A DNA stretch of 6,692 bases, taken from IMG/VR virus record IMGVR_UViG_3300001493_000033; one strand, given 5' to 3'. Positions 1 through 6,692 of this stretch are shown here, piece after piece. Origin of the DNA: a virus. Its lineage: Duplodnaviria > Heunggongvirae > Uroviricota > Caudoviricetes. A model generated the notes under the pieces. It did no database searches, was not told where the DNA came from, and worked only from the letters and a program-made list of their open reading frames with translations. Within the stretch, counting starts at the first letter, position 1. Each line of letters starts with the position of its first letter. A program made the translations under genes and the position numbers.

Positions 1-10
1 GTGAATAATG

Positions 11-221
11 GGTGAAGGGTGAACATTCGATTCTTCACCTCCGGCATTCTGCCGGTGTGACTCATACCGGTGATTAATCCNCCGNACTGAAAATCACNCA
101 GGGAGAAAAAAGTTTTTTTTTGATTTGATTGTTCACACTGTTCACCTTTCATTTTTCTCTTTAAATTTCAGTGTGATAACGGGTGAATATACGGTGAAGG
201 GTGAACAGTGGATTGTTCACC
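11..221. repeat. Iteron cluster, crr-like (cis replication region) downstream of alpha
   Basis: Exact TGTTCACC at 139-146 and 214-221 and GGTGAACAG at 200-208; one-mismatch copies at 18-25, 32-39, 130-137, 182-189, 193-200; both orientations. Matches the octamer I recall as the P4 alpha-binding type I iteron. Confidence 0.6.
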
Positions 222-239
222 TTCGGGGAATTCAGGGAT

Positions 240-264
240 AAAAAAAGACCGGCAGATGCCGGTC
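240..264 (-). terminator. Intrinsic terminator of the alpha operon
   Basis: Inverted repeat gaccggca/tgccggtc at 247-264 (7-8 bp stem, GC-rich), followed on the minus strand by a 7-U run (A-run 240-246 on plus); begins 8 nt after the alpha stop codon (272-274). Confidence 0.6.
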
Positions 265-271
265 AGGTGGG

Positions 272-2605
272 TCAGGCTGTCGCAGGGTCGTCACATTTTG
301 GCAGCCAGTCGCCGTAGCTTTCCTCTTTCAGCGTCAGGTTGGTCTGTATCCCCTGTTTGGTATGGCGCTTCTCGTAATTCAGTCCGTATTCCTTCAGCAT
401 CACCGGCAGCCCCAGCCCGAACATTTTCAGACTGAGTACATTCCGGTAGCCGTTTGCCTCCATGTAGGCCAGATAGGCGTGATAGAGGTATTTACAGTAA
501 TTACGCGGGATGATACTGGCGTTCCCCATATACATGCCGCTGGTCTGCGGCAGGGTTTCCAGATAGCCGATAAAATCAAACGTCGGGTCGGCATCCCGTT
601 TGATGTTCAGTGCCTCGTCTGAGTTCTGCTGGGACTGAAGCAGTGACCGGGCGAGCATCGGGTCGCTGAATTTCTGCATCAGGTGACGCACGATGACCGC
701 CAGCTCGCGGGTGATTTTGTCCTTAAGCTGCGGGTCGCGCTCCTGCGGGGCTATCTGTTCCGGGAAGTGAATAATCACCCGCCGGCGTGACACGCCGCCG
801 CTGCGGTCGGTGAAGCGCATCGGGTTATTGTTCACGGCCAGAATNACCGCCGGNATATGCGTGGAGTACGCATCCCGGTATTTCGGGTCCACGGACACCG
901 CATCGCCGCCGGTGATGGCCTTGAGTCCGGCACCGTCGCCGCTCCATTTTTCCTGNTCCGGCAGGCGTATCAGTGAGAAGCCAGTTAACGCGGCACGTTC
1001 ACGCGGGGATTCCAGCGTCTCNATGGTGGCCGACGTGGCGTTATCCTCNCCNGCCAGCAGGGTGGCTATTTCGGCCATGATACTTTTGCCGCTGCCGCCG
1101 GGACCGGTCACCTCCAGAAAGAGCTGCCAGTCGTAGCGGTTTGCCAGCACCATAAACAGTGCNGCCAGAATCACGTCGCGTTTTTCCGCACGNCCACCGG
1201 CGGCACGGTCAAGCCAGCGCCAGAACGCGGGNGCGTGGGTTTCCAGCGTTTCACCNTCCACCGGCGGGGTGAAATCCACATCGCACAGGGTGCGCATCCA
1301 GTGTGACGGACTGTGCGGGTGGAACGTGCCGTTCTGCGTGTCGAGCACGCCGTTACGAAAGCCAATCAGGCGGCGGGAGGGGGCTTCCTGCTGCGGAATA
1401 ATCAGCTTCAGGGTGTCCACCACGGAGGCCACCTTCCCGGAGGAGAACGGCGCGCGCAGACGCTGAAACAGCCCGGCCACATCCCGGGCAAAGTCCTGTG
1501 GTGGCAGCACCTTCCAGACACCATTTTCATAACGGGACAGAAGCTGGCCGTTGGCATCAACCGCGAGCGCCTCGCCGTAATGCTCATAGATACGCATGGC
1601 CTTTTCGCTGGTACTCATGGCGGAAAACTCCGCTTCGCTCATGGTGTCGAACGGGCTTTCAGCCGGTGGCCGGATGGCATCGTAAATGGCCTTACGGGNG
1701 GCCTCCCCGCCGTACTGCGTGAAGGCATCATTCCAGTCACCGAAGACCGGCGGCAGGGCAACAACGCCCTCACACGCATCTGCGGCTGCGGCGGCTTTTT
1801 TCTGGCCGTCACCGCTGAGGTCACGGTCTGCGGCAAGGACAATCTGACAGGCCGGATGCTTCTGCCGGGCAAGGCTGGCCAGAGAAAGGAGGTTCACGGA
1901 AGAAAGCGCCACCATCACCGTTTCACCGGTCAGGTGATGTACGGTAAGTGCGGTCGCGTATCCCTCCGCTATCCACAGACGTTTTCCGGCCTGATTCTGT
2001 CCTTCAAGGNTGTGACAGGTGCCCCTGACCTGNCCGCCTTTCAGGGTGCGCTTACGGCCGTCAGCACTGATTAACTGAAGGTTAACCAGTTCGCCGCTGT
2101 CGTCATACAGTGGCACCACAAGGTCACCGGCGCGCCAGCTCACGCCACCGGCTCTGTGTGTGCCGGTCAGCATCCGGCATTCCCGGCCGGGAAAGCCCTT
2201 GCGGGTCAGGTAGGCGTTACCGGTTCCGGGACGGGTTTTCGCCATCAGGGTTTGTGCCAGTGCGGCGGCGTTCTTCCGGGCAGCGTCTGTTTCAGCACCG
2301 GCGGCNGCCGTCACTGCCGGGTCAGCCGGGGGCAGGCTGCCGGTCACGGCAGCCACCTTTGNGGCCGCGTCGGACGGGGAAACACCAAACACCTTTTCAA
2401 CCAGTTTCAGGCCGTCACCGGCACCACACTGATTGCAGTACCAGGTGCCGCGCCCCTCCCTGTCATCAAAACGGAANCGGTCACTCCCGCCACAGACCGG
2501 ACAGGGCTGATGACGGTTNTTCAGCACCTGAATCCCCAGCGCCGGGAGAATACGCGGCCAGTGGCCGAGCGCATGGCTGACGGTGGCGGTTACGTTNATT
2601 TTCAT
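272..2605 (-). CDS. alpha: P4 alpha-like multifunctional replication protein (zinc-binding primase N-terminus, TOPRIM, SF3/D5-type helicase), 777 aa
   Basis: N-terminal zinc motif CPVCGG...CNQCG; TOPRIM-like LWIAEGYATA...AADRDLSGDG; Walker A GPGGSGKS; RBS AAGGAG 9 nt before ATG at 2605-2603. Several X residues come from ambiguous bases but the frame stays open. Confidence 0.9.
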   Translation of the reverse strand: MKXNVTATVSHALGHWPRILPALGIQVLXNRHQPCPVCGGSDXFRFDDREGRGTWYCNQCGAGDGLKLVEKVFGVSPSDAAXKVAAVTGSLPPADPAVTXAAGAETDAARKNAAALAQTLMAKTRPGTGNAYLTRKGFPGRECRMLTGTHRAGGVSWRAGDLVVPLYDDSGELVNLQLISADGRKRTLKGXQVRGTCHXLEGQNQAGKRLWIAEGYATALTVHHLTGETVMVALSSVNLLSLASLARQKHPACQIVLAADRDLSGDGQKKAAAAADACEGVVALPPVFGDWNDAFTQYGGEAXRKAIYDAIRPPAESPFDTMSEAEFSAMSTSEKAMRIYEHYGEALAVDANGQLLSRYENGVWKVLPPQDFARDVAGLFQRLRAPFSSGKVASVVDTLKLIIPQQEAPSRRLIGFRNGVLDTQNGTFHPHSPSHWMRTLCDVDFTPPVXGETLETHXPAFWRWLDRAAGXRAEKRDVILXALFMVLANRYDWQLFLEVTGPGGSGKSIMAEIATLLXXEDNATSATXETLESPRERAALTGFSLIRLPXQEKWSGDGAGLKAITGGDAVSVDPKYRDAYSTHXPAXILAVNNNPMRFTDRSGGVSRRRVIIHFPEQIAPQERDPQLKDKITRELAVIVRHLMQKFSDPMLARSLLQSQQNSDEALNIKRDADPTFDFIGYLETLPQTSGMYMGNASIIPRNYCKYLYHAYLAYMEANGYRNVLSLKMFGLGLPVMLKEYGLNYEKRHTKQGIQTNLTLKEESYGDWLPKCDDPATA

Positions 2606-2619
2606 GGTGTTGTTCTCCT

Positions 2620-2940
2620 TCAGTGCAGTACCGGCGCTTTTATGTGACGGGCACAGAGTTCATCCNTCACAACCAGCCCGAGAAAGGACAGCGACGGCGC
2701 GGCCTTCAGGGGGCCGGATTCCATTAAATCTTCCAGCAGGGCACAGGCTATCTGACGCCCTTTTTCCTCACCGTGCTGGCGCAGATAAAAGCCTTCCAGC
2801 TCAGCGGCGATGGCCGCCTCCAGTGACTCAAGGGTGAGATGCGGGTAGCGGTGCTGACGTTCGCACACGGTCAGCCAGGCACAGGCGACAGCGCGACGGT
2901 AAAGGGCAGCGCGTAAGACGGGCGGTAAGGGTGTTTTCAT
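2620..2940 (-). CDS. Hypothetical protein, 106 aa, immediately upstream of and coupled to alpha
   Basis: ORF with RBS GGGAGG upstream of ATG at 2940; its TGA stop (2622-2620) overlaps the alpha RBS. No domain recognised by eye. Confidence 0.7.
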
Positions 2941-3075
2941 TTGCTTTCCTCCCTGTGACAGATGACTGCATTCCGTGCCGGTTGCATTAACTGATAAGGC
3001 ATATCTGCGTCTCCTGAAGACGTGCGTATCCCTGCGCGAATACGCACATTTAATTTTTCGGGTGTCGTTTTTTAA

Positions 3076-3704
3076 TTACAGATAATTGCGGTAACTGTTA
3101 TCCGGGGTGGTTTCCGGGTCAGGCTCCGTGCGGGGAATTTCCCGCCATTCCCGCGCTACCGGTGCTGCCCGGCTGACCGGAACAGGGTCCTGCGGGTAAA
3201 TATCCAGATATTTCTCCCGCCATTTCTGTAATTCCGGGTCTCCGGCCATTTCTTTCAGTACCGCATGCCGGTTTACGGAGCTGCGTTTAAACAGGTCAGG
3301 ACGGTCACAGGTAAATTCCCGCAGAAAACGCCCCAGCGGGATGTCTGTGGTGCGCCCGTCGGCGAGGATACGCACAAGGATACTGAATTTACGGCGGTAC
3401 GGATTCCAGACAATGTCCGGGCAGCGGTACGGCATTTCCCANNNNNNNNNNGGCTGCGTTTAAACAGGTCAGGGCGGTCACAGGTAAATTCCCGCAGAAA
3501 ACGCCCCAGCGGGATGTCTGTGGTGCGCCCGTCAGCGAGGATACGCACAAGGATACTGAATTTACGGCGGTACGGATTCCAGACAATGTCCGGGCAGCGG
3601 TACGGCATTTCCCACGGAATACCGTCTTCCAGAATGCCGACCACGGCCACATCGGGAAAACCGGCAGAACGGTAAATCTCACCGGGCTGGGGAAAATCAA
3701 ACAT
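3076..3704 (-). CDS. Hypothetical protein, P4 orf151-like; 151 aa once the gap-flanking duplication is collapsed
   Basis: The 143-aa and 119-aa ORF fragments overlap through a 162-bp duplicated segment either side of the N run; merging at MPYRCPDIVW gives 32 + 119 = 151 aa. RBS GGGAG 9 nt before ATG (3704-3702), which overlaps the upstream gene stop (ATGTTTGA). Confidence 0.65.
3280..3614. repeat. Duplicated 162-bp segment on both sides of a 10-N scaffold gap (3280-3441 and 3453-3614); probable assembly artifact
   Basis: Near-identical sequence (2 mismatches) directly flanking nnnnnnnnnn at 3442-3451; collapsing it restores a single in-frame 151-aa ORF. Confidence 0.6.
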
Positions 3705-3984
3705 GCGTCCTGTCTCCCCGGTCTTTCTGCTGGGCGAGAAAATCGCGGCACAGGCCTTTGGCTTTCAGCTCATTCAGCACAAAATCAATATCTTCATTCA
3801 GGTAACTGAAAATATGCGGAATGTAGAGCTGATGCAGGCCGGAGAGTTCACGGTGAATCAAATCACCCCCAACAAACTGGGATACGGCGCTGGCGCGGTT
3901 GAGCTTATGGTAAGCCTCAATGCTGAGGTGTTCACGGGCGTCATGACGTGCTGAGACGGTCTGAGGGGCTTTTTTATTACGCAC
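3697..3984 (-). CDS. Epsilon-position protein, 95 aa, GTG start
   Basis: Open frame ending in TGA at 3699-3697, overlapping the next start codon; in-frame GTG at 3984-3982 preceded by GGAGGU with 5-nt spacing; overlaps the stop of the upstream small ORF. Assignment is by position and size only. Confidence 0.5.
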
Positions 3985-4174
3985 GGGACACCTCCACCAC
4001 CGGCAGACGGGCAGCAAGGGAGAGCACATAGTCACGGACAAGGGAACGGCGGGCGCTGCGTTCATCACCGGCGACGGTGCGAAGCATGCAGATACGGGGA
4101 TGACGGTCTGCGCGACGGACAGCCGCAAACACAAAGACAAATTCAGGGTGTGAGGGGGTAAGGGTTGTAGCCAT
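3977..4174 (-). CDS. Small protein, 65 aa, Kil-position (possible host cell division inhibitor Icd/Kil-like)
   Basis: ATG at 4174-4172 with RBS GGAGG (4186-4182) 7 nt upstream; product [21 protein letters not shown]...; identical copy at 5969-6166. Function inferred from position in the P4 operon, not from sequence recognition. Confidence 0.55.
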
Positions 4175-4181
4175 GATGGCA

Positions 4182-4296
4182 GCCTCCTTGAAGTAACAGT
4201 TACAGCTACCACTGGAGTTCCTACGCTCATGGGTGGTAGCCCGGACGGGGGTAGGAATACCGGCCTTCAAGGAAACCGGCCAGCCCGAAGGCTGCC
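4182..4296 (-). ncRNA. P4-type immunity leader RNA region (CI-like): seqB-like element plus seqC-like target overlapping the Kil-like RBS
   Basis: Plus-strand cttcaagg (4265-4272) and gtaggaa (4251-4257) are complementary to ccttgaag/gttcctac at 4186-4226 and again at 4408-4433; local hairpin gctaccac/gtggtagc (4205-4212/4233-4240); CAGCC-UUCG-GGCUG tetraloop hairpin (4281-4294). RNA boundaries not determinable from sequence. Confidence 0.5.
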
Positions 4297-4377
4297 CCGC
4301 CCGGACCACCATTATCTGACAGAGGCTACGGTTTAAAAACCACAGCCAGAAAAACAGGTGTGCCGAAGCAACGACGT

Positions 4378-4399
4378 AAAAAAAGACGCATGGCGCGTC
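4378..4399 (-). terminator. Intrinsic terminator between the upstream seqA-like site and the seqB element
   Basis: Minus-strand GACGCGCCAUGCGUC (6-bp stem incl. one GU, 3-nt loop) followed by U7 (A-run 4378-4384 on plus); conserved in the second copy at 6406-6427. Confidence 0.55.
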
Positions 4400-4407
4400 A
4401 TATGTCG

Positions 4408-4433
4408 CCTTGAAGTAACTCGGGTTCCTACGC
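4408..4433 (-). promoter_or_regulatory. seqA-like upstream target site (direct repeat of the seqC-like site)
   Basis: ccttgaagtaac (4408-4419) and gttcctacgc (4424-4433) repeat the motifs at 4186-4197 and 4217-4226; both are complementary to the seqB element. Confidence 0.5.
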
Positions 4434-4462
4434 CCGGCTGCCGATTTTGCGGCAGCGGAGAA

Positions 4463-4492
4463 ACTATATCCGCAAATGCCGGAAAAAGGCAA
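4463..4492 (-). promoter_or_regulatory. Candidate sigma-70 promoter (PLE-like) reading toward the immunity region
   Basis: On the minus strand, -35 TTGCCT (4492-4487), 18-bp spacer, -10 TATAGT (4468-4463); conserved in copy 2 (-35 at 6515-6520, -10 at 6491-6496). Prediction by eye only. Confidence 0.35.
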
Positions 4493-4527
4493 GCCAGAAA
4501 AAGGGACTTTTTGCAGAGCGGGCATCA

Positions 4528-4794
4528 TCATGCGTCGTACCCCCGTTTGCGTCCGGCAATGCGCCCGGCCATCCATGCGGTGATTTCAGAGTGCAGCCAG
4601 GCCACATTTTTACCGCCAAGACTCACCTGCGGCGGAAATTCCCCCTTACGGATGAGTTCATAGATGGTCGAGCGTGACAGGCCGCACAGGTGCATCACTT
4701 CCGGCAGACGTAAAAAACGCTCCTGCGTGATGTCCGGCAGCGGCATCAGTGGCGTCACAGGGGCGGGAGACGGGGAAGAAAAAACAGCTTGCAT
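4528..4794 (-). CDS. alpA: AlpA/Vis-family phage transcriptional regulator (excision/integrase regulator), 88 aa
   Basis: Product contains the AlpA-type helix-turn-helix region [27 protein letters not shown]; RBS GAGGU 6 nt before ATG (4794-4792); same size as P4 orf88/Vis. Confidence 0.88.
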
Positions 4795-4896
4795 CGGGCT
4801 ACCTCGTTAATGTCCATACAGCACCGGATAAGTCCGTCCGGCTTCGGGTAGCGCTTTATTTTGTGAATATTTTTGGCAGACGCAACAGGGGGGATT

Positions 4897-4914
4897 TGTT
4901 CCGGNAGCCTTACA
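4897..4914. promoter_or_regulatory. TGT-N12-ACA dyad, candidate Ogr/Delta-type activator site for the leftward late promoter (PLL-like)
   Basis: TGT (4897-4899), 12 nt, ACA (4912-4914); centre about 55 bp from a plausible leftward start near 4850, upstream of the regulator ATG at 4794. Confidence 0.4.
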
Positions 4915-4940
4915 ATGACTGTGTGTTTTTTGTTCATTCC

Positions 4941-4970
4941 CACTTAAAGTCATTTAAAGCCACTTAAAGC
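4941..4970. repeat. Three tandem 10-bp direct repeats (cacttaaagt / catttaaagc / cacttaaagc)
   Basis: Perfectly phased decamers at 4941-4950, 4951-4960, 4961-4970, between the leftward dyad and the ori-like iterons. Function unknown. Confidence 0.5.
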
Positions 4971-5073
4971 AATTCGTAATTTTTATAGTGAAATACAAAT
5001 CGTTTCTTCTTATTCATTCACAGCGAATTAATAAAAACAAACAGTAGTAAACAGCACAAAAAGTCCATGAGCG

Positions 5074-5178
5074 GGTGAACAGTGGTGAACAGACGGTGAA
5101 CAGTCATTACTGCGATTGTTCACCCNTTAACTTACTGTATTACTTATCTTTTTTCTTATGGTGAACAGAGGTGAACAG
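5074..5178. repeat. Iteron cluster, ori-like
   Basis: GGTGAACAG at 5074-5082, 5084-5092, 5095-5103 (about 10.5-bp phasing), 5160-5168, 5170-5178, and inverted TGTTCACC at 5117-5124; flanked by AT-rich sequence (4970-5070, 5180-5200). Confidence 0.6.
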
Positions 5179-5256
5179 TAAAATATAAAAAAACAAACAG
5201 TAAGCCGGTTTTTCCTGCGACCTTTTCCTGGCTTGCCGGTCTGAGGATGAGTCTCC

Positions 5257-5274
5257 TGTGTCAGGACTGGCACA
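5257..5274. promoter_or_regulatory. TGT-N12-ACA dyad, candidate Ogr/Delta-type activator site for the rightward late promoter (Psid-like)
   Basis: TGT (5257-5259), 12 nt, ACA (5272-5274); centre about 55 bp upstream of a predicted start near 5320, with the ATG at 5347. Confidence 0.45.
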
Positions 5275-5346
5275 TCTGCAATGCGTCGTGTTGTTGTCCG
5301 GTGTACGTCACAATTTTCTTAACCTGAAGTGACGAGGAGCCGGAAA

Positions 5347-5931
5347 ATGTCTGACAACACCATCCCTGAATATCTGCAACCCGCACTGGCACAACTGGAA
5401 AAGGCCAGAGCCGCTCATCTTGAGAACGCCCGACTGATGGATGAGACCGTCAAGGCCATTGAACGGGCAGAGCAGGAAAAAAATGCGCTGGCGCAGGCCG
5501 ACGGAAATGACGCTGATGACTGGCGCACAGCCTTTCGTGCAGCCGGTGGTGTCCTGAGCGACGAGCTGAAACAGCGCCACATTGAGCGCGTGGCACGCCG
5601 GGAGCTGGTACAGGAATATGNCAATCTGGCCGTGGTGCTGANTTTTGAACGTGAACGCCTGAAAGGGGCGTGTGACAGCACGGCCACCGCCTACCGGAAG
5701 GCACATCATCACCTTCTGAGTCTGTATGCAGAGCATGAGCTGGAACACGCCCTGAATGAAACCTGTGAGGCGCTTGTCCGGGCAATGCATCTGAGTATCC
5801 TGGTACAGGAAAATCCGCTCGCCAACACCACCGGCCATCAGGGCTACGTCGCACCCGATAAAGCTGTCATGCAGCAGGTGAAATCATCGCTGGAACAGAA
5901 AATTAAACAGATGCAAATCAGCCTCACCGGC
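5347..5931 (+). CDS. Sid/Psu-family late-operon protein, 3-prime end lost in the scaffold gap (at least 195 aa)
   Basis: ATG at 5347 with RBS GAGGAG 6 nt upstream (ORF track begins at an upstream in-frame GTG, 5329); charged, coiled-coil-like product; first gene downstream of the divergent dyad promoter. Position and length fit Sid better than Psu, but this is not resolved. Confidence 0.55.
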
Positions 5932-5968
5932 NNNNNNNNNNGCTGAGACGGTCTGAGGGGCTTTTTTA

Positions 5969-6166
5969 TTACGCACGGGACACCTCCACCACCGGCAGAC
6001 GGGCAGCAAGGGAGAGCACATAGTCTCGGACAAGGGAACGGCGGGCGCTGCGTTCATCACCGGCGACGGTGCGAAGCATGCAGATACGGGGATGACGGTC
6101 TGCGCGACGGACAGCCGCAAACACAAAGACAAATTCAGGGTGTGAGGGGGTAAGGGTTGTAGCCAT
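5969..6166 (-). CDS. Second copy of the Kil-position small protein (65 aa)
   Basis: Same ATG and RBS context as 3977-4174; the coding region lies entirely within the near-identical duplicated segment. Confidence 0.5.
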
Positions 6167-6173
6167 GATGGCA

Positions 6174-6461
6174 GCCTCCGTTAGATAGCAGGTTACGCTA
6201 TCGCCGGAGTTCTCACGCTCGATGGCGATAGCCCAGACGGGGGTGAGAATACCGGCTCTAACGGATACCGGCCAGCCCGGAGGCTGCCCCGCCTGAGCTA
6301 CCATTGACTCAGTGGCATAACATGCGATTGCAAACAGGATCATACCTGCACGGCAAACCACACGCCACACCATAATCTGGCGCTCTGTGGCGTTGATTGC
6401 GACACAAAAAAAGACGCATGGCGCGTCATATGTCGCCGTTAGATTGCTCGGGTTCTCACGC
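6174..6461 (-). ncRNA. Variant P4-type immunity region (seqA-, seqB-, seqC-like sites with altered but mutually complementary sequences)
   Basis: seqC-like ccgttagatagc (6178-6189) and gttctcacgc (6209-6218); seqB-like gtgagaa (6243-6249) and tctaacgg (6257-6264); seqA-like 6436-6461; hairpin gctatcgcc/ggcgatagc (6197-6205/6224-6232); UCCG-loop hairpin 6273-6286; terminator 6406-6427. Confidence 0.5.
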
Positions 6462-6555
6462 CCGGCTGCCGATTTTGCGGCAGCGGAAAAACTATATCCG
6501 CAAATGCCGGAAAAAGGCAAGCCAGAAAAAGGGAGTTTTTGCAGAACAGGCATCA

Positions 6556-6692
6556 TCATGCGTCGTACCCCCGTTTGCGTCCGGCGATGCGCCCGGCCAT
6601 CCATGCAGTGACTTCAGAGTGCAGCCAGGCCACATTTTTACCGCCAAGACTCACCTGCGGCGGAAATTCCCCCTTACGGATGAGTTCATAGA
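6556..6692 (-). CDS. alpA: AlpA/Vis-family regulator, second copy, C-terminal part only (5-prime end beyond window)
   Basis: Near-identical to 4528-4664; stop codon at 6558-6556. Confidence 0.75.

Follow-up and report, generated by a model that had tools for sequence, protein, structure and literature searches.

An Icd-like kil gene and divergent CI immunity RNAs in contigs of P4-type satellite prophages

INTRODUCTION

The stretch of viral DNA analyzed here, 6,692 nucleotides long and referred to below as the window, contains the same small open reading frame (ORF) of 65 codons twice, each time next to an apparent regulatory RNA that differs between the two copies. The locus raises the question of what this ORF encodes and of how its constancy is to be understood when the RNA beside it varies. 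A sequence-only reading of the window had proposed that the ORF is a toxic or host-targeting cargo whose expression is gated by the variable RNA. Here, we report a computational analysis of the ORF, the RNA, their counterparts in related elements, and the assembly of the window itself. All positions are those of the window, and features lie on the minus strand unless the plus strand is stated.

RESULTS

The 65-aa ORF is almost certainly P4 kil

The two ORFs are located at 3977-4174 (copy 1; ATG at 4174-4172 and TAA at 3979-3977) and at 5969-6166 (copy 2), and each consists of 65 codons followed by TAA. The observation that the ORF is the same in both copies held up, since the two proteins are identical and 197 of 198 nucleotides match, with a synonymous CGT/CGA exchange in an arginine codon (4033 versus 6025) as the sole change. 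The ATG, an 8-nt spacer, and the GGAGG (4183-4187 and 6175-6179) are also the same in the two copies.

When the ORF product was compared with phage P4 by tblastn, we found 100% amino acid identity over 65 aa to the translation of P4 positions 8171 to 8365, and the kil sequences of P4, copy 1, and copy 2 have three nucleotide differences in total, all of them synonymous. The protein also matches the NCBIfam model NF033153, "host cell division inhibitor Icd-like", with a score of 76.1 bits (E = 1.6e-21; profile positions 1 to 48 of 48) against a curated cutoff of 25 bits, and its RefSeq label is Icd-like protein (WP_000246261.1). The Icd-like family is common across the Enterobacteriaceae, with 239 clusters at 90% identity and 286 representatives at 50% identity, and its NF033153-type members span P4, P1, N15, and PY54. 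P1 Icd scores 52.6 bits on the same model. Because BLASTP of Kil against P1 Icd gives no alignment while the shared hidden Markov model (HMM) does, the homology between Kil and Icd is detectable at the profile level only. A Pfam search with the 65-aa protein, as had been suggested, found no match at E ≤ 1, and the family is covered by NCBIfam and PHROGs only.

An AF2 model of Kil, of moderate confidence (pLDDT, 75), consists of a beta-hairpin and an amphipathic helix, fold searches with this model returned no informative structural neighbor and no functional clue, and a PDB sequence-profile search with Kil returned nothing under E = 0.4. The Kil sequence is arginine-rich.

We considered and rejected several other assignments. 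The label "transcriptional repressor" (PHROGs phrog_6928 and phrog_1743, and old GenBank records) was rejected as a function because it derives from a superseded 137-aa P4 "cI" ORF: in old P4 records, the kil stretch falls within either "put. ash gene" or "cI gene product (AA 1-137)", the latter being the last 137 codons of eta. The P4 "cI protein" annotation predates the demonstration that the immunity factor is an RNA. These labels therefore do not represent homology to a non-toxic protein, which had been named as the kind of result that would speak against a toxic product. The ORF does not belong with lambda Kil or Rac KilR, in that the Pfam search described above placed it in no family at E ≤ 1. 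It also differs from type I toxin-antitoxin systems, in that Kil is arginine-rich and not a hydrophobic membrane peptide and in that kil and the CI RNA lie on one strand and in one transcript, from which the CI RNA is processed.

We conclude that the ORF is almost certainly the kil gene of a P4-type satellite prophage, the first gene of the PLE (left, early) operon to be translated, and that it encodes a 65-aa Icd-like protein. It agrees with P4 kil in its identity and length of 65 codons, in having its own ribosome-binding site inside seqC downstream of PLE and CI, and in its nesting within the 3' part of eta, and it agrees with Icd-like ORFs in its HMM score above the cutoff, in the C4-type RNA directly upstream whose target lies over the ribosome-binding site, and in its overlap with the next gene. 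The gene is already described and annotated, and the elements that carry it here are not a new element class; what distinguishes the two is their RNA immunity specificity. In P4, the PLE transcript is translated into Kil, a truncated Eta that kills cells (PMC10111431, citing Forti et al. 1999). Overexpression of P4 kil is lethal.

kil shares its frame with eta

The kil frame extends upstream into a longer gene, eta. In copy 1, eta spans 3977-4531 (184 aa), starts with ATGATGATG (4531-4523), and overlaps the alpA stop, and in copy 2 it spans 5969-6559 (196 aa), also starting with ATGATGATG (6559-6551). When P4 eta is read from its three consecutive ATGs (MMM), it is 199, 198, or 197 aa long, which agrees with the published size; P4 kil is reportedly 65 aa and eta 197 to 199 aa long. 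The model PF10554 (Phage_ASH) matches the N-terminal part of copy 1 eta. In 85 of 87 loci, no stop interrupts the eta frame over at least 118 codons before kil, compared to means of 5.9 and 2.6 stops in the two alternative frames, and the P value for an open eta frame in shuffled sequence is 0.013. Both copies likewise have no stop in eta across the divergent RNA region, in which a 36-nt indel is in frame. Previous work described eta as a long gene that is translationally coupled to alpA and whose translation prevents termination (PMC10111431).

The flanking genes are those of P4. An alpA/vis homolog (P4 ORF88; 4528-4794; PF05930, E = 3.9e-21) occupies the same position as in P4, and epsilon, which encodes the helper derepression protein of 95 aa, is found at 3697-3984 (PF25738, E = 7.7e-51), its P4 counterpart being at 7888-8175 of the P4 record. 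The epsilon GTG (3984-3982) overlaps the kil stop within GTGCGTAA (3984-3977).

Among 40 distinct 65-codon alleles of kil, 33 of the 50 polymorphic sites are at codon position 3, and comparison with diverged homologs (from Kosakonia, Enterobacter, Phytobacter, Kluyvera, Mixta, and one divergent IMG/VR element) gave pN/pS values of 0.10 to 0.34 at pS values of 0.41 to 0.69, so purifying selection acts on the amino acid sequence. One frame serves both kil and eta, so that selection on free Kil is inseparable from selection on the C terminus of Eta. It could be that the Eta C terminus is what is selected, that the internal ATG and Shine-Dalgarno sequence are mainly a ribosome-loading device for antitermination, and that free Kil has no role. 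Besides the frame that kil shares with an eta ORF open in nearly all loci, many of the 286 Icd-like matches in the 50%-identity library point in this direction, as they are located at the extreme C terminus of proteins of 200 to 630 aa, several of which have a Phage_ASH region just upstream of the Icd-like part. However, the ATG and GGAGG are kept in nearly all loci, stand-alone versions of 64 to 73 aa occur in P1, N15, and many Klebsiella and Salmonella elements, and P4 Kil alone is reported to kill cells (PMC10111431). We consider it unlikely that kil has no role apart from eta.

The kil ribosome-binding site is part of the CI RNA target

The order of elements read from the sequence is promoter, seqA, CI, seqC with the ribosome-binding site, kil, and epsilon, with the ribosome-binding site embedded in the CI target. 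A PLE-like sigma-70 promoter (4463-4492; TTGCCT, 18 nt, TATAGT) is predicted closely upstream of position 4456, where the isrK model starts, and a promoter scan of 3600-5400 found no other promoter-like site. In copy 1, this promoter is followed by a seqA/isrK-like leader (4379-4456; a1 at 4408-4415 and b1 at 4425-4431; RF01394, 73.4 bits; RF03163, c4-a1b1, 50.1 bits), which contains a hairpin at 4385-4399 and then a U7 run, a terminator-like site. A variable spacer (4317-4378), kept open in the eta frame, separates the leader from the CI RNA (Rfam C4; 4229-4316; RF01695, 86.1 bits, E = 1.5e-16), which has its a' loop at 4264-4275 and its b' junction at 4251-4259. In copy 2, the seqA/isrK-like leader is at 6407-6484 (a1 at 6436-6443 and b1 at 6453-6459; RF01394, 72 bits; RF03163, 49.5 bits) and the CI RNA at 6221-6308 (a' loop at 6256-6267 and b' junction at 6243-6251; RF01695, 74.5 bits, E = 1.1e-13). 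The C4, isrK, and c4-a1b1 matches are all above their gathering thresholds in both copies, the gathering score of RF01695 being 45. The isrK and C4 families correspond to seqA and the CI RNA of P4 (PMC3632133, PMC4825925).

We found that the CI hairpin-2 loop of copy 1, UUUCCUUGAAGG (4275-4264), complements both CUUCAAGG in seqA (4415-4408) and CUUCAAGGAGG in seqC (a2, 4193-4183), the latter of which includes the kil Shine-Dalgarno sequence. The copy 1 junction, UAUUCCUAC (4259-4251), complements GUAGGAA in seqA and in seqC, where the b2 site (4218-4224) is its exact complement. In copy 2, the a2 site with the Shine-Dalgarno sequence (6175-6185; RNA UCUAACGGAGG) complements the loop at 6256-6267, the b2 site is at 6210-6216, and all six elements are altered jointly, to UCUAACGG and GUGAGAA. 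The resulting specificities are CUUCAAGG/GUAGGAA for copy 1, UCUAACGG/GUGAGAA for copy 2, and UUCACAGG/GUGAGAA for P4. In both copies, the kil Shine-Dalgarno sequence is within a 9- to 11-nt complement of the CI loop, and this complement changes with the loop.

The start of the kil mRNA (4137-4176) is C-rich and G-poor (40% C and 10% G), as in rut sites, and the 5' 40 nt of kil have the highest C/G ratio within the PLE transcript. From this composition, the kil start may be a Rho loading site.

A model for control of kil and the downstream operon

The P4 and P1 literature suggests how these elements would work together. In an immune prophage, the processed CI RNA would pair through its a' loop and b' junction with seqA and seqC, and this pairing would occlude the kil ribosome-binding site and block kil translation. 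The untranslated, C-rich kil mRNA would then be open to Rho, and transcription would end at timm and so not reach epsilon, orf151, orf106, or the alpha primase gene. If the CI RNA were absent or noncognate, translation of kil from PLE would prevent termination and the operon would be expressed, and when transcription comes from the late promoter, ribosomes on alpA and eta would run through the region, again preventing termination. An excess of Kil would be expected to harm the host; its P1 homolog Icd blocks cell division. Termination of the transcript from the internal constitutive promoter through CI/seqA interactions has been described (PMC10111431). For the elements in the window, Kil toxicity, Rho dependence, and CI-mediated repression are proposed by analogy with P4 and P1.

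Because kil translation would decide whether epsilon and alpha are transcribed downstream, Kil is better regarded as a core part of the immunity circuit than as cargo. Of the original proposal, the idea of a toxic or host-targeting product gated by a variable RNA is supported by the identity to P4 kil, by the Icd-like family, and by a ribosome-binding site inside a co-varying CI target, with toxicity itself taken from the P4 and P1 homologs, whereas the term "cargo" does not fit. In essence, the supported part is what has already been published on P4 kil and on C4/Icd immunity.

The combination of a small toxic protein with an abundant and stable antisense RNA, made from the same locus and blocking translation of the protein, could also be viewed as an addiction or abortive-infection module, in which an RNA antitoxin and a protein toxin stabilize the element or kill the cell on superinfection. 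In keeping with this, a TraDIS experiment showed that Salmonella Typhi needs the IsrK-like leaders of P4-like prophages in order to grow (PMC3632133), but that requirement is equally explained by derepression of alpha and epsilon, and the beta-hairpin and helix predicted for Kil are unlike the hydrophobic membrane toxins of type I systems. We regard an addiction module as quite improbable. It is very unlikely, too, that kil is a leader ORF only, in which the act of translation matters through Rho exclusion and coupling to epsilon, the peptide is irrelevant, and toxicity is an artifact of overexpression. Such a role would suit the rut-like kil start, the overlap of the kil stop with the epsilon GTG, and the label of the P1 icd record, "apparently required for expression of ant", but a pure leader would not show the low pN/pS found here at such pS, nor would it retain its peptide sequence across an HMM family that reaches from P4 to P1, N15, and PY54.

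The copies diverge in specificity patches within a conserved backbone

The RNA next to kil does diverge between the copies, as had been noted, with 29 to 90% identity across the leader. Identity is 66% in seqC (4188-4228), 77% in the C4 RNA (4229-4316), 29% in the spacer, which contains the 36-nt indel (4317-4378), and 90% in seqA/isrK (4379-4456), and it returns to 94 to 98% toward alpA. Divergence had been placed as beginning 4 nt upstream of the GGAGG; the first diverging base is in fact 1 nt upstream, directly adjoining it (T at 4188 versus G at 6180).

To place this contrast in a wider set, we used 76 aligned IMG/VR loci. Nucleotide diversity is approximately 0.016 in kil, approximately 0.01 in epsilon, and 0.01 to 0.02 in alpA, the kil value being biased low because the loci were chosen by Kil similarity, although the unselected flanks are equally uniform. 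Diversity of 0.1 to 0.36 is confined to patches of the 310 nt upstream of kil, namely seqA, the spacer, the CI loop, and seqC. We therefore rejected the view that kil is exceptionally conserved, as the epsilon and alpA flanks are just as conserved, and the identity of kil between the copies reflects a backbone that is near-identical in general. Judged from these alignments, the contrast between the ORF and the RNA is not due to chance, but neither is it specific to kil: hypervariable specificity patches are set in a near-invariant backbone.

Loop and junction sites co-vary with their targets in related loci

Comparative loci were taken from an IMG/VR scan, and a pattern scan of genome contigs gave at least 5 loci. 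Across 85 related loci, we found 14 combinations of loop and junction, that is, 14 specificity types. Exact complementarity of at least 7 nt to the cognate loop is present in seqC in 83 of these loci and in seqA in 81, while the junction has a 7-nt complement in seqC in all 85 and in seqA in 84. The exact complements are 7 to 9 nt long, compared to a median of 4 to 5 nt for noncognate pairs.

In a 12-by-12 matrix of RNAduplex energies, the cognate pair has the lowest energy in all rows but one, and the exceptional row, that of copy 1, is a tie with a locus bearing the same loop. The predicted energy of the copy 1 CI RNA is -32.4 kcal/mol on its own seqC and -21.6 kcal/mol on the seqC of copy 2, and that of the copy 2 CI RNA is -36.4 kcal/mol on its own seqC and -15.9 kcal/mol on the seqC of copy 1. 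Given the co-varying sites and the cognate duplex energies, the two elements are therefore predicted to be heteroimmune. Two pairs of IMG/VR loci each come from the same genome, and the members of one pair have the same immunity type while those of the other pair have different types (L030/L031 and L009/L079).

It is quite possible, though we stop just short of expecting it, that the P4-type satellites of Escherichia coli have a two-site combinatorial immunity code, with no fewer than 5 alleles of the CI loop and 3 of the junction, all with matching sites in seqA and seqC, shuffled onto a backbone of approximately 98 to 99% identity that always gives the same Kil/Icd-like output. If so, such a code would imply that selection for heteroimmunity is diversifying and frequency-dependent among satellites that reside together, such as the two types found here in one assembly.

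The two copies derive from contigs of two P4-type elements

The window as a whole is DNA of a P4-type satellite prophage, with 93 to 98% identity to phage P4 (NC_001609) by BLASTN in four segments: window 1-3441 aligns to P4 4367-7805 (98.0% identity), 3452-4313 to 7643-8504 (95.7%), 4372-5931 to 8608-10167 (96.6%), and 5942-6692 to 8141-8900 (92.9%). Its gene order is identical to that of P4 and includes, in addition to the genes described above, alpha primase (272-2605), ORF106/DUF5375 (2620-2940), ORF151, which is interrupted by the first run of N's, and, on the plus strand, sid (from 5347).

The window is, however, a draft scaffold, with 46 ambiguous bases and N10 gaps at 3442-3451 and 5932-5941. 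Copy 2 is on a separate contig of 751 nt (5942-6692) that starts right at the second gap and covers again the region from the start of epsilon to alpA, and 162 nt flanking the first gap (3442) are present twice, with 2 single-nucleotide polymorphisms (SNPs) between them. In view of the gaps, the re-covered stretch, and the duplication with SNPs, the scaffold therefore mixes contigs of at least two P4-type elements and, given the SNPs, possibly of a third, and we rejected the view that the copies are a tandem feature of one molecule, given that copy 2 is on its own contig beyond a gap.

These same irregularities would be expected if the second copy were the same locus assembled twice and the contrast between ORF and RNA were not biological, but this is highly improbable. 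The loop, junction, seqA, and seqC shift jointly to another specificity that is consistent in itself, over its full 751 nt copy 2 is 99.7% identical to an independent contig of IMG/VR (L019), and complete E. coli assemblies carry up to 4 P4-type elements per genome. Coherent co-variation and independent matches exclude an assembly artifact. Copy 1, in turn, has a counterpart of 99.2% identity in a complete E. coli chromosome (L088). By these matches, both alleles are genuine, though their placement in the scaffold is artificial. We are highly confident of the explanation as a whole, in which the two copies are contigs of two P4-type elements, predicted to be heteroimmune, whose backbone is approximately 98 to 100% identical outside the divergent leader.

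DISCUSSION

The annotation of this locus is settled by the analysis: P4 kil, an Icd-like gene, accounts for the ORF, and what had looked like a neighboring "switch" is the CI/C4 immunity RNA together with seqA and seqC, its targets. The names "transcriptional repressor", "CI repressor", and "Ash family protein", which are applied to this ORF or to the frame that precedes it, should be read with caution, as they are legacy names for translations of the region of an RNA gene.

If anything here goes beyond earlier descriptions, it is the picture across the population and not kil itself. The lead is a modest one and consists of 14 co-varying types on an invariant backbone, together with an eta frame that is open across a hypervariable RNA gene. 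It bears on how heteroimmunity evolves among satellites and on how one stretch of DNA can be a structured RNA, an antisense target, and an open reading frame.

Among known systems, lambda Kil and Rac KilR, which are FtsZ inhibitors, share with P4 Kil the name and the character of a small prophage protein that harms cell division, but they are not homologous to it. The IsrK, orf45, and anrP region of Salmonella Gifsy-1 is related through its RNA, as the leader at 4379-4456 matches the Rfam isrK model. IsrK has been called a structural homolog of P4 seqA, and the downstream genes are likewise controlled through translation of a small ORF (PMC4825925); Gifsy-1 IsrK differs in that it acts in trans, as an activator, on its own long isoform.

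The secondary immunity regions of N15 and PY54 (cA RNA and gene 32/icd) contain the closest stand-alone phage homologs of Kil, with 44 to 50% amino acid identity, annotated as icd or "secondary immunity repressor". N15 and PY54 are linear plasmid-prophages and not satellites, and their downstream genes differ.

The P4 immunity region (Forti et al. 1999, J Bacteriol 181:5225; Sabbattini et al. 1995) belongs to the same type of element, with the same gene order and a Kil protein that is 100% identical. The nesting in eta, the overlap with the alpA stop, and the fold of the CI RNA are also as in P4, and copy 2 has the P4 b-site, GUGAGAA. In contrast to P4, with its UUCACAGG target, the a' loop targets CUUCAAGG in copy 1 and UCUAACGG in copy 2, and copy 1 has a different b-site and a shorter spacer, resulting in an eta of 184 aa compared to 199 aa in P4.

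The immI region of P1 and P7 (c4, icd, and ant) has the same layout, with a1 and b1, then C4, then a2 and b2 over the ribosome-binding site of an Icd-family ORF that overlaps ant. The P1 record labels icd [quoted passage not shown], and in both systems the gene after the Icd-like ORF counteracts a repressor, this gene being ant in P1 and epsilon (Pfam "Derepression") in P4. The downstream gene here is epsilon, directed against the P2 repressor and followed by replication genes, and not ant, and P4 has, beyond the P1 arrangement, a nested eta frame and another promoter upstream. The heteroimmunity of P1 and P7 arises from changed RNA recognition sequences (PMC12197685), the same principle that would set apart the two copies in the window.

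The eta reading frame across the antisense RNA region

The 65-codon Icd-like ORF kil forms the 3' end of a long ORF in the same frame, eta, and in both copies of the locus (3977-4531 and 5969-6559, minus strand) we found this frame to be free of stops through seqA (the isrK-like target in the leader), the spacer, the C4 antisense RNA gene, and the DNA of seqC, the target over the kil Shine-Dalgarno sequence. It stays open despite considerable divergence, since the two copies share only 29 to 77% identity over the seqA-to-seqC stretch of eta and differ there by a 36-nt in-frame indel. Among 87 related loci, 85 keep the eta frame uninterrupted, with an average of 2.6 to 5.9 stops in the other two frames. 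An open frame in the face of such divergence, with stops in the alternatives, shows that one stretch of DNA is constrained at the same time as a structured RNA, as an antisense target, and as an ORF. The frame is broken in the IMG/VR elements L065, L076, and L082, where stops occur 43 to 57 codons before kil. In L076 the whole C4 region is missing, and the codon at the kil start position is not ATG. These three are probably decaying or rearranged elements.

Several database names have been attached to this frame. Residues 37 to 146 of the 199-aa ORF at 3977-4576 match Pfam PF10554 (Phage_ASH, "Ash protein family"; E=3e-34), and the matching segment (4137-4421, minus strand) coincides exactly with the stretch of eta that overlies seqA, the spacer, and the C4 RNA gene. 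RefSeq labels this part a partial "ash family protein" pseudogene, and PHROGs and old GenBank records give the same frame as "transcriptional repressor" or "cI." These names are legacy labels over an RNA gene region.

In a library of representative proteins at 50% identity, the Kil/Icd-like domain very often lies at the extreme C terminus of proteins of 200 to 630 aa (P0158 to P0266), and thus eta-like long forms seem, judging from these sequences, to be common outside P4. Some of these proteins have a Phage_ASH region directly upstream of the domain and a further 130 to 210 aa of unassigned N-terminal sequence.

Immunity types and candidate termination signals

Among E. coli elements, there are about 5 to 6 alleles of the CI RNA loop (a') and 3 of its junction (b'), and we counted 14 a'/b' combinations in 85 loci (4175-4456 and 6167-6484 in the window). 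Every combination has matching seqA and seqC sites, and the remaining backbone is about 98 to 99% identical. Immunity specificity appears to be combinatorial.

The first 40 nt of the kil mRNA, CAUGGCUACAACCCUUACCCCCUCACACCCUGAAUUUGU (4137-4176, minus strand), have a C content of 40% and a G content of 10%; no other window of the transcript from the early promoter PLE is as rich in C and poor in G. This stretch looks like a Rho loading (rut) site at a position that a ribosome would occupy. Directly 3' of seqA, a GC-rich hairpin is followed by U7 (4379-4399 and 6407-6427, minus strand); the element falls at the 3'-terminal edge of the isrK match, within the leader and 5' of the CI RNA, and resembles an intrinsic terminator or attenuator.

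Scaffold composition and replication repeats

The window contains 46 ambiguous bases and two N10 gaps (3442-3451 and 5932-5941), and it is a chimeric draft scaffold. A 162-nt repeat flanks the first gap (3280-3441 versus 3453-3614), with 2 SNPs between its copies (3301/3474 and 3361/3534). This imperfect duplication across a gap shows that two or more P4-type elements contributed the contigs and that their order within the scaffold is not biological. The octamer GGTGAACAG / TGTTCACC is clustered at 1-240 and 5070-5180, and these clusters match the alpha-binding "ori type 1 repeats" of P4, found in crr (P4 4291-4590) and ori (P4 9310-9413).
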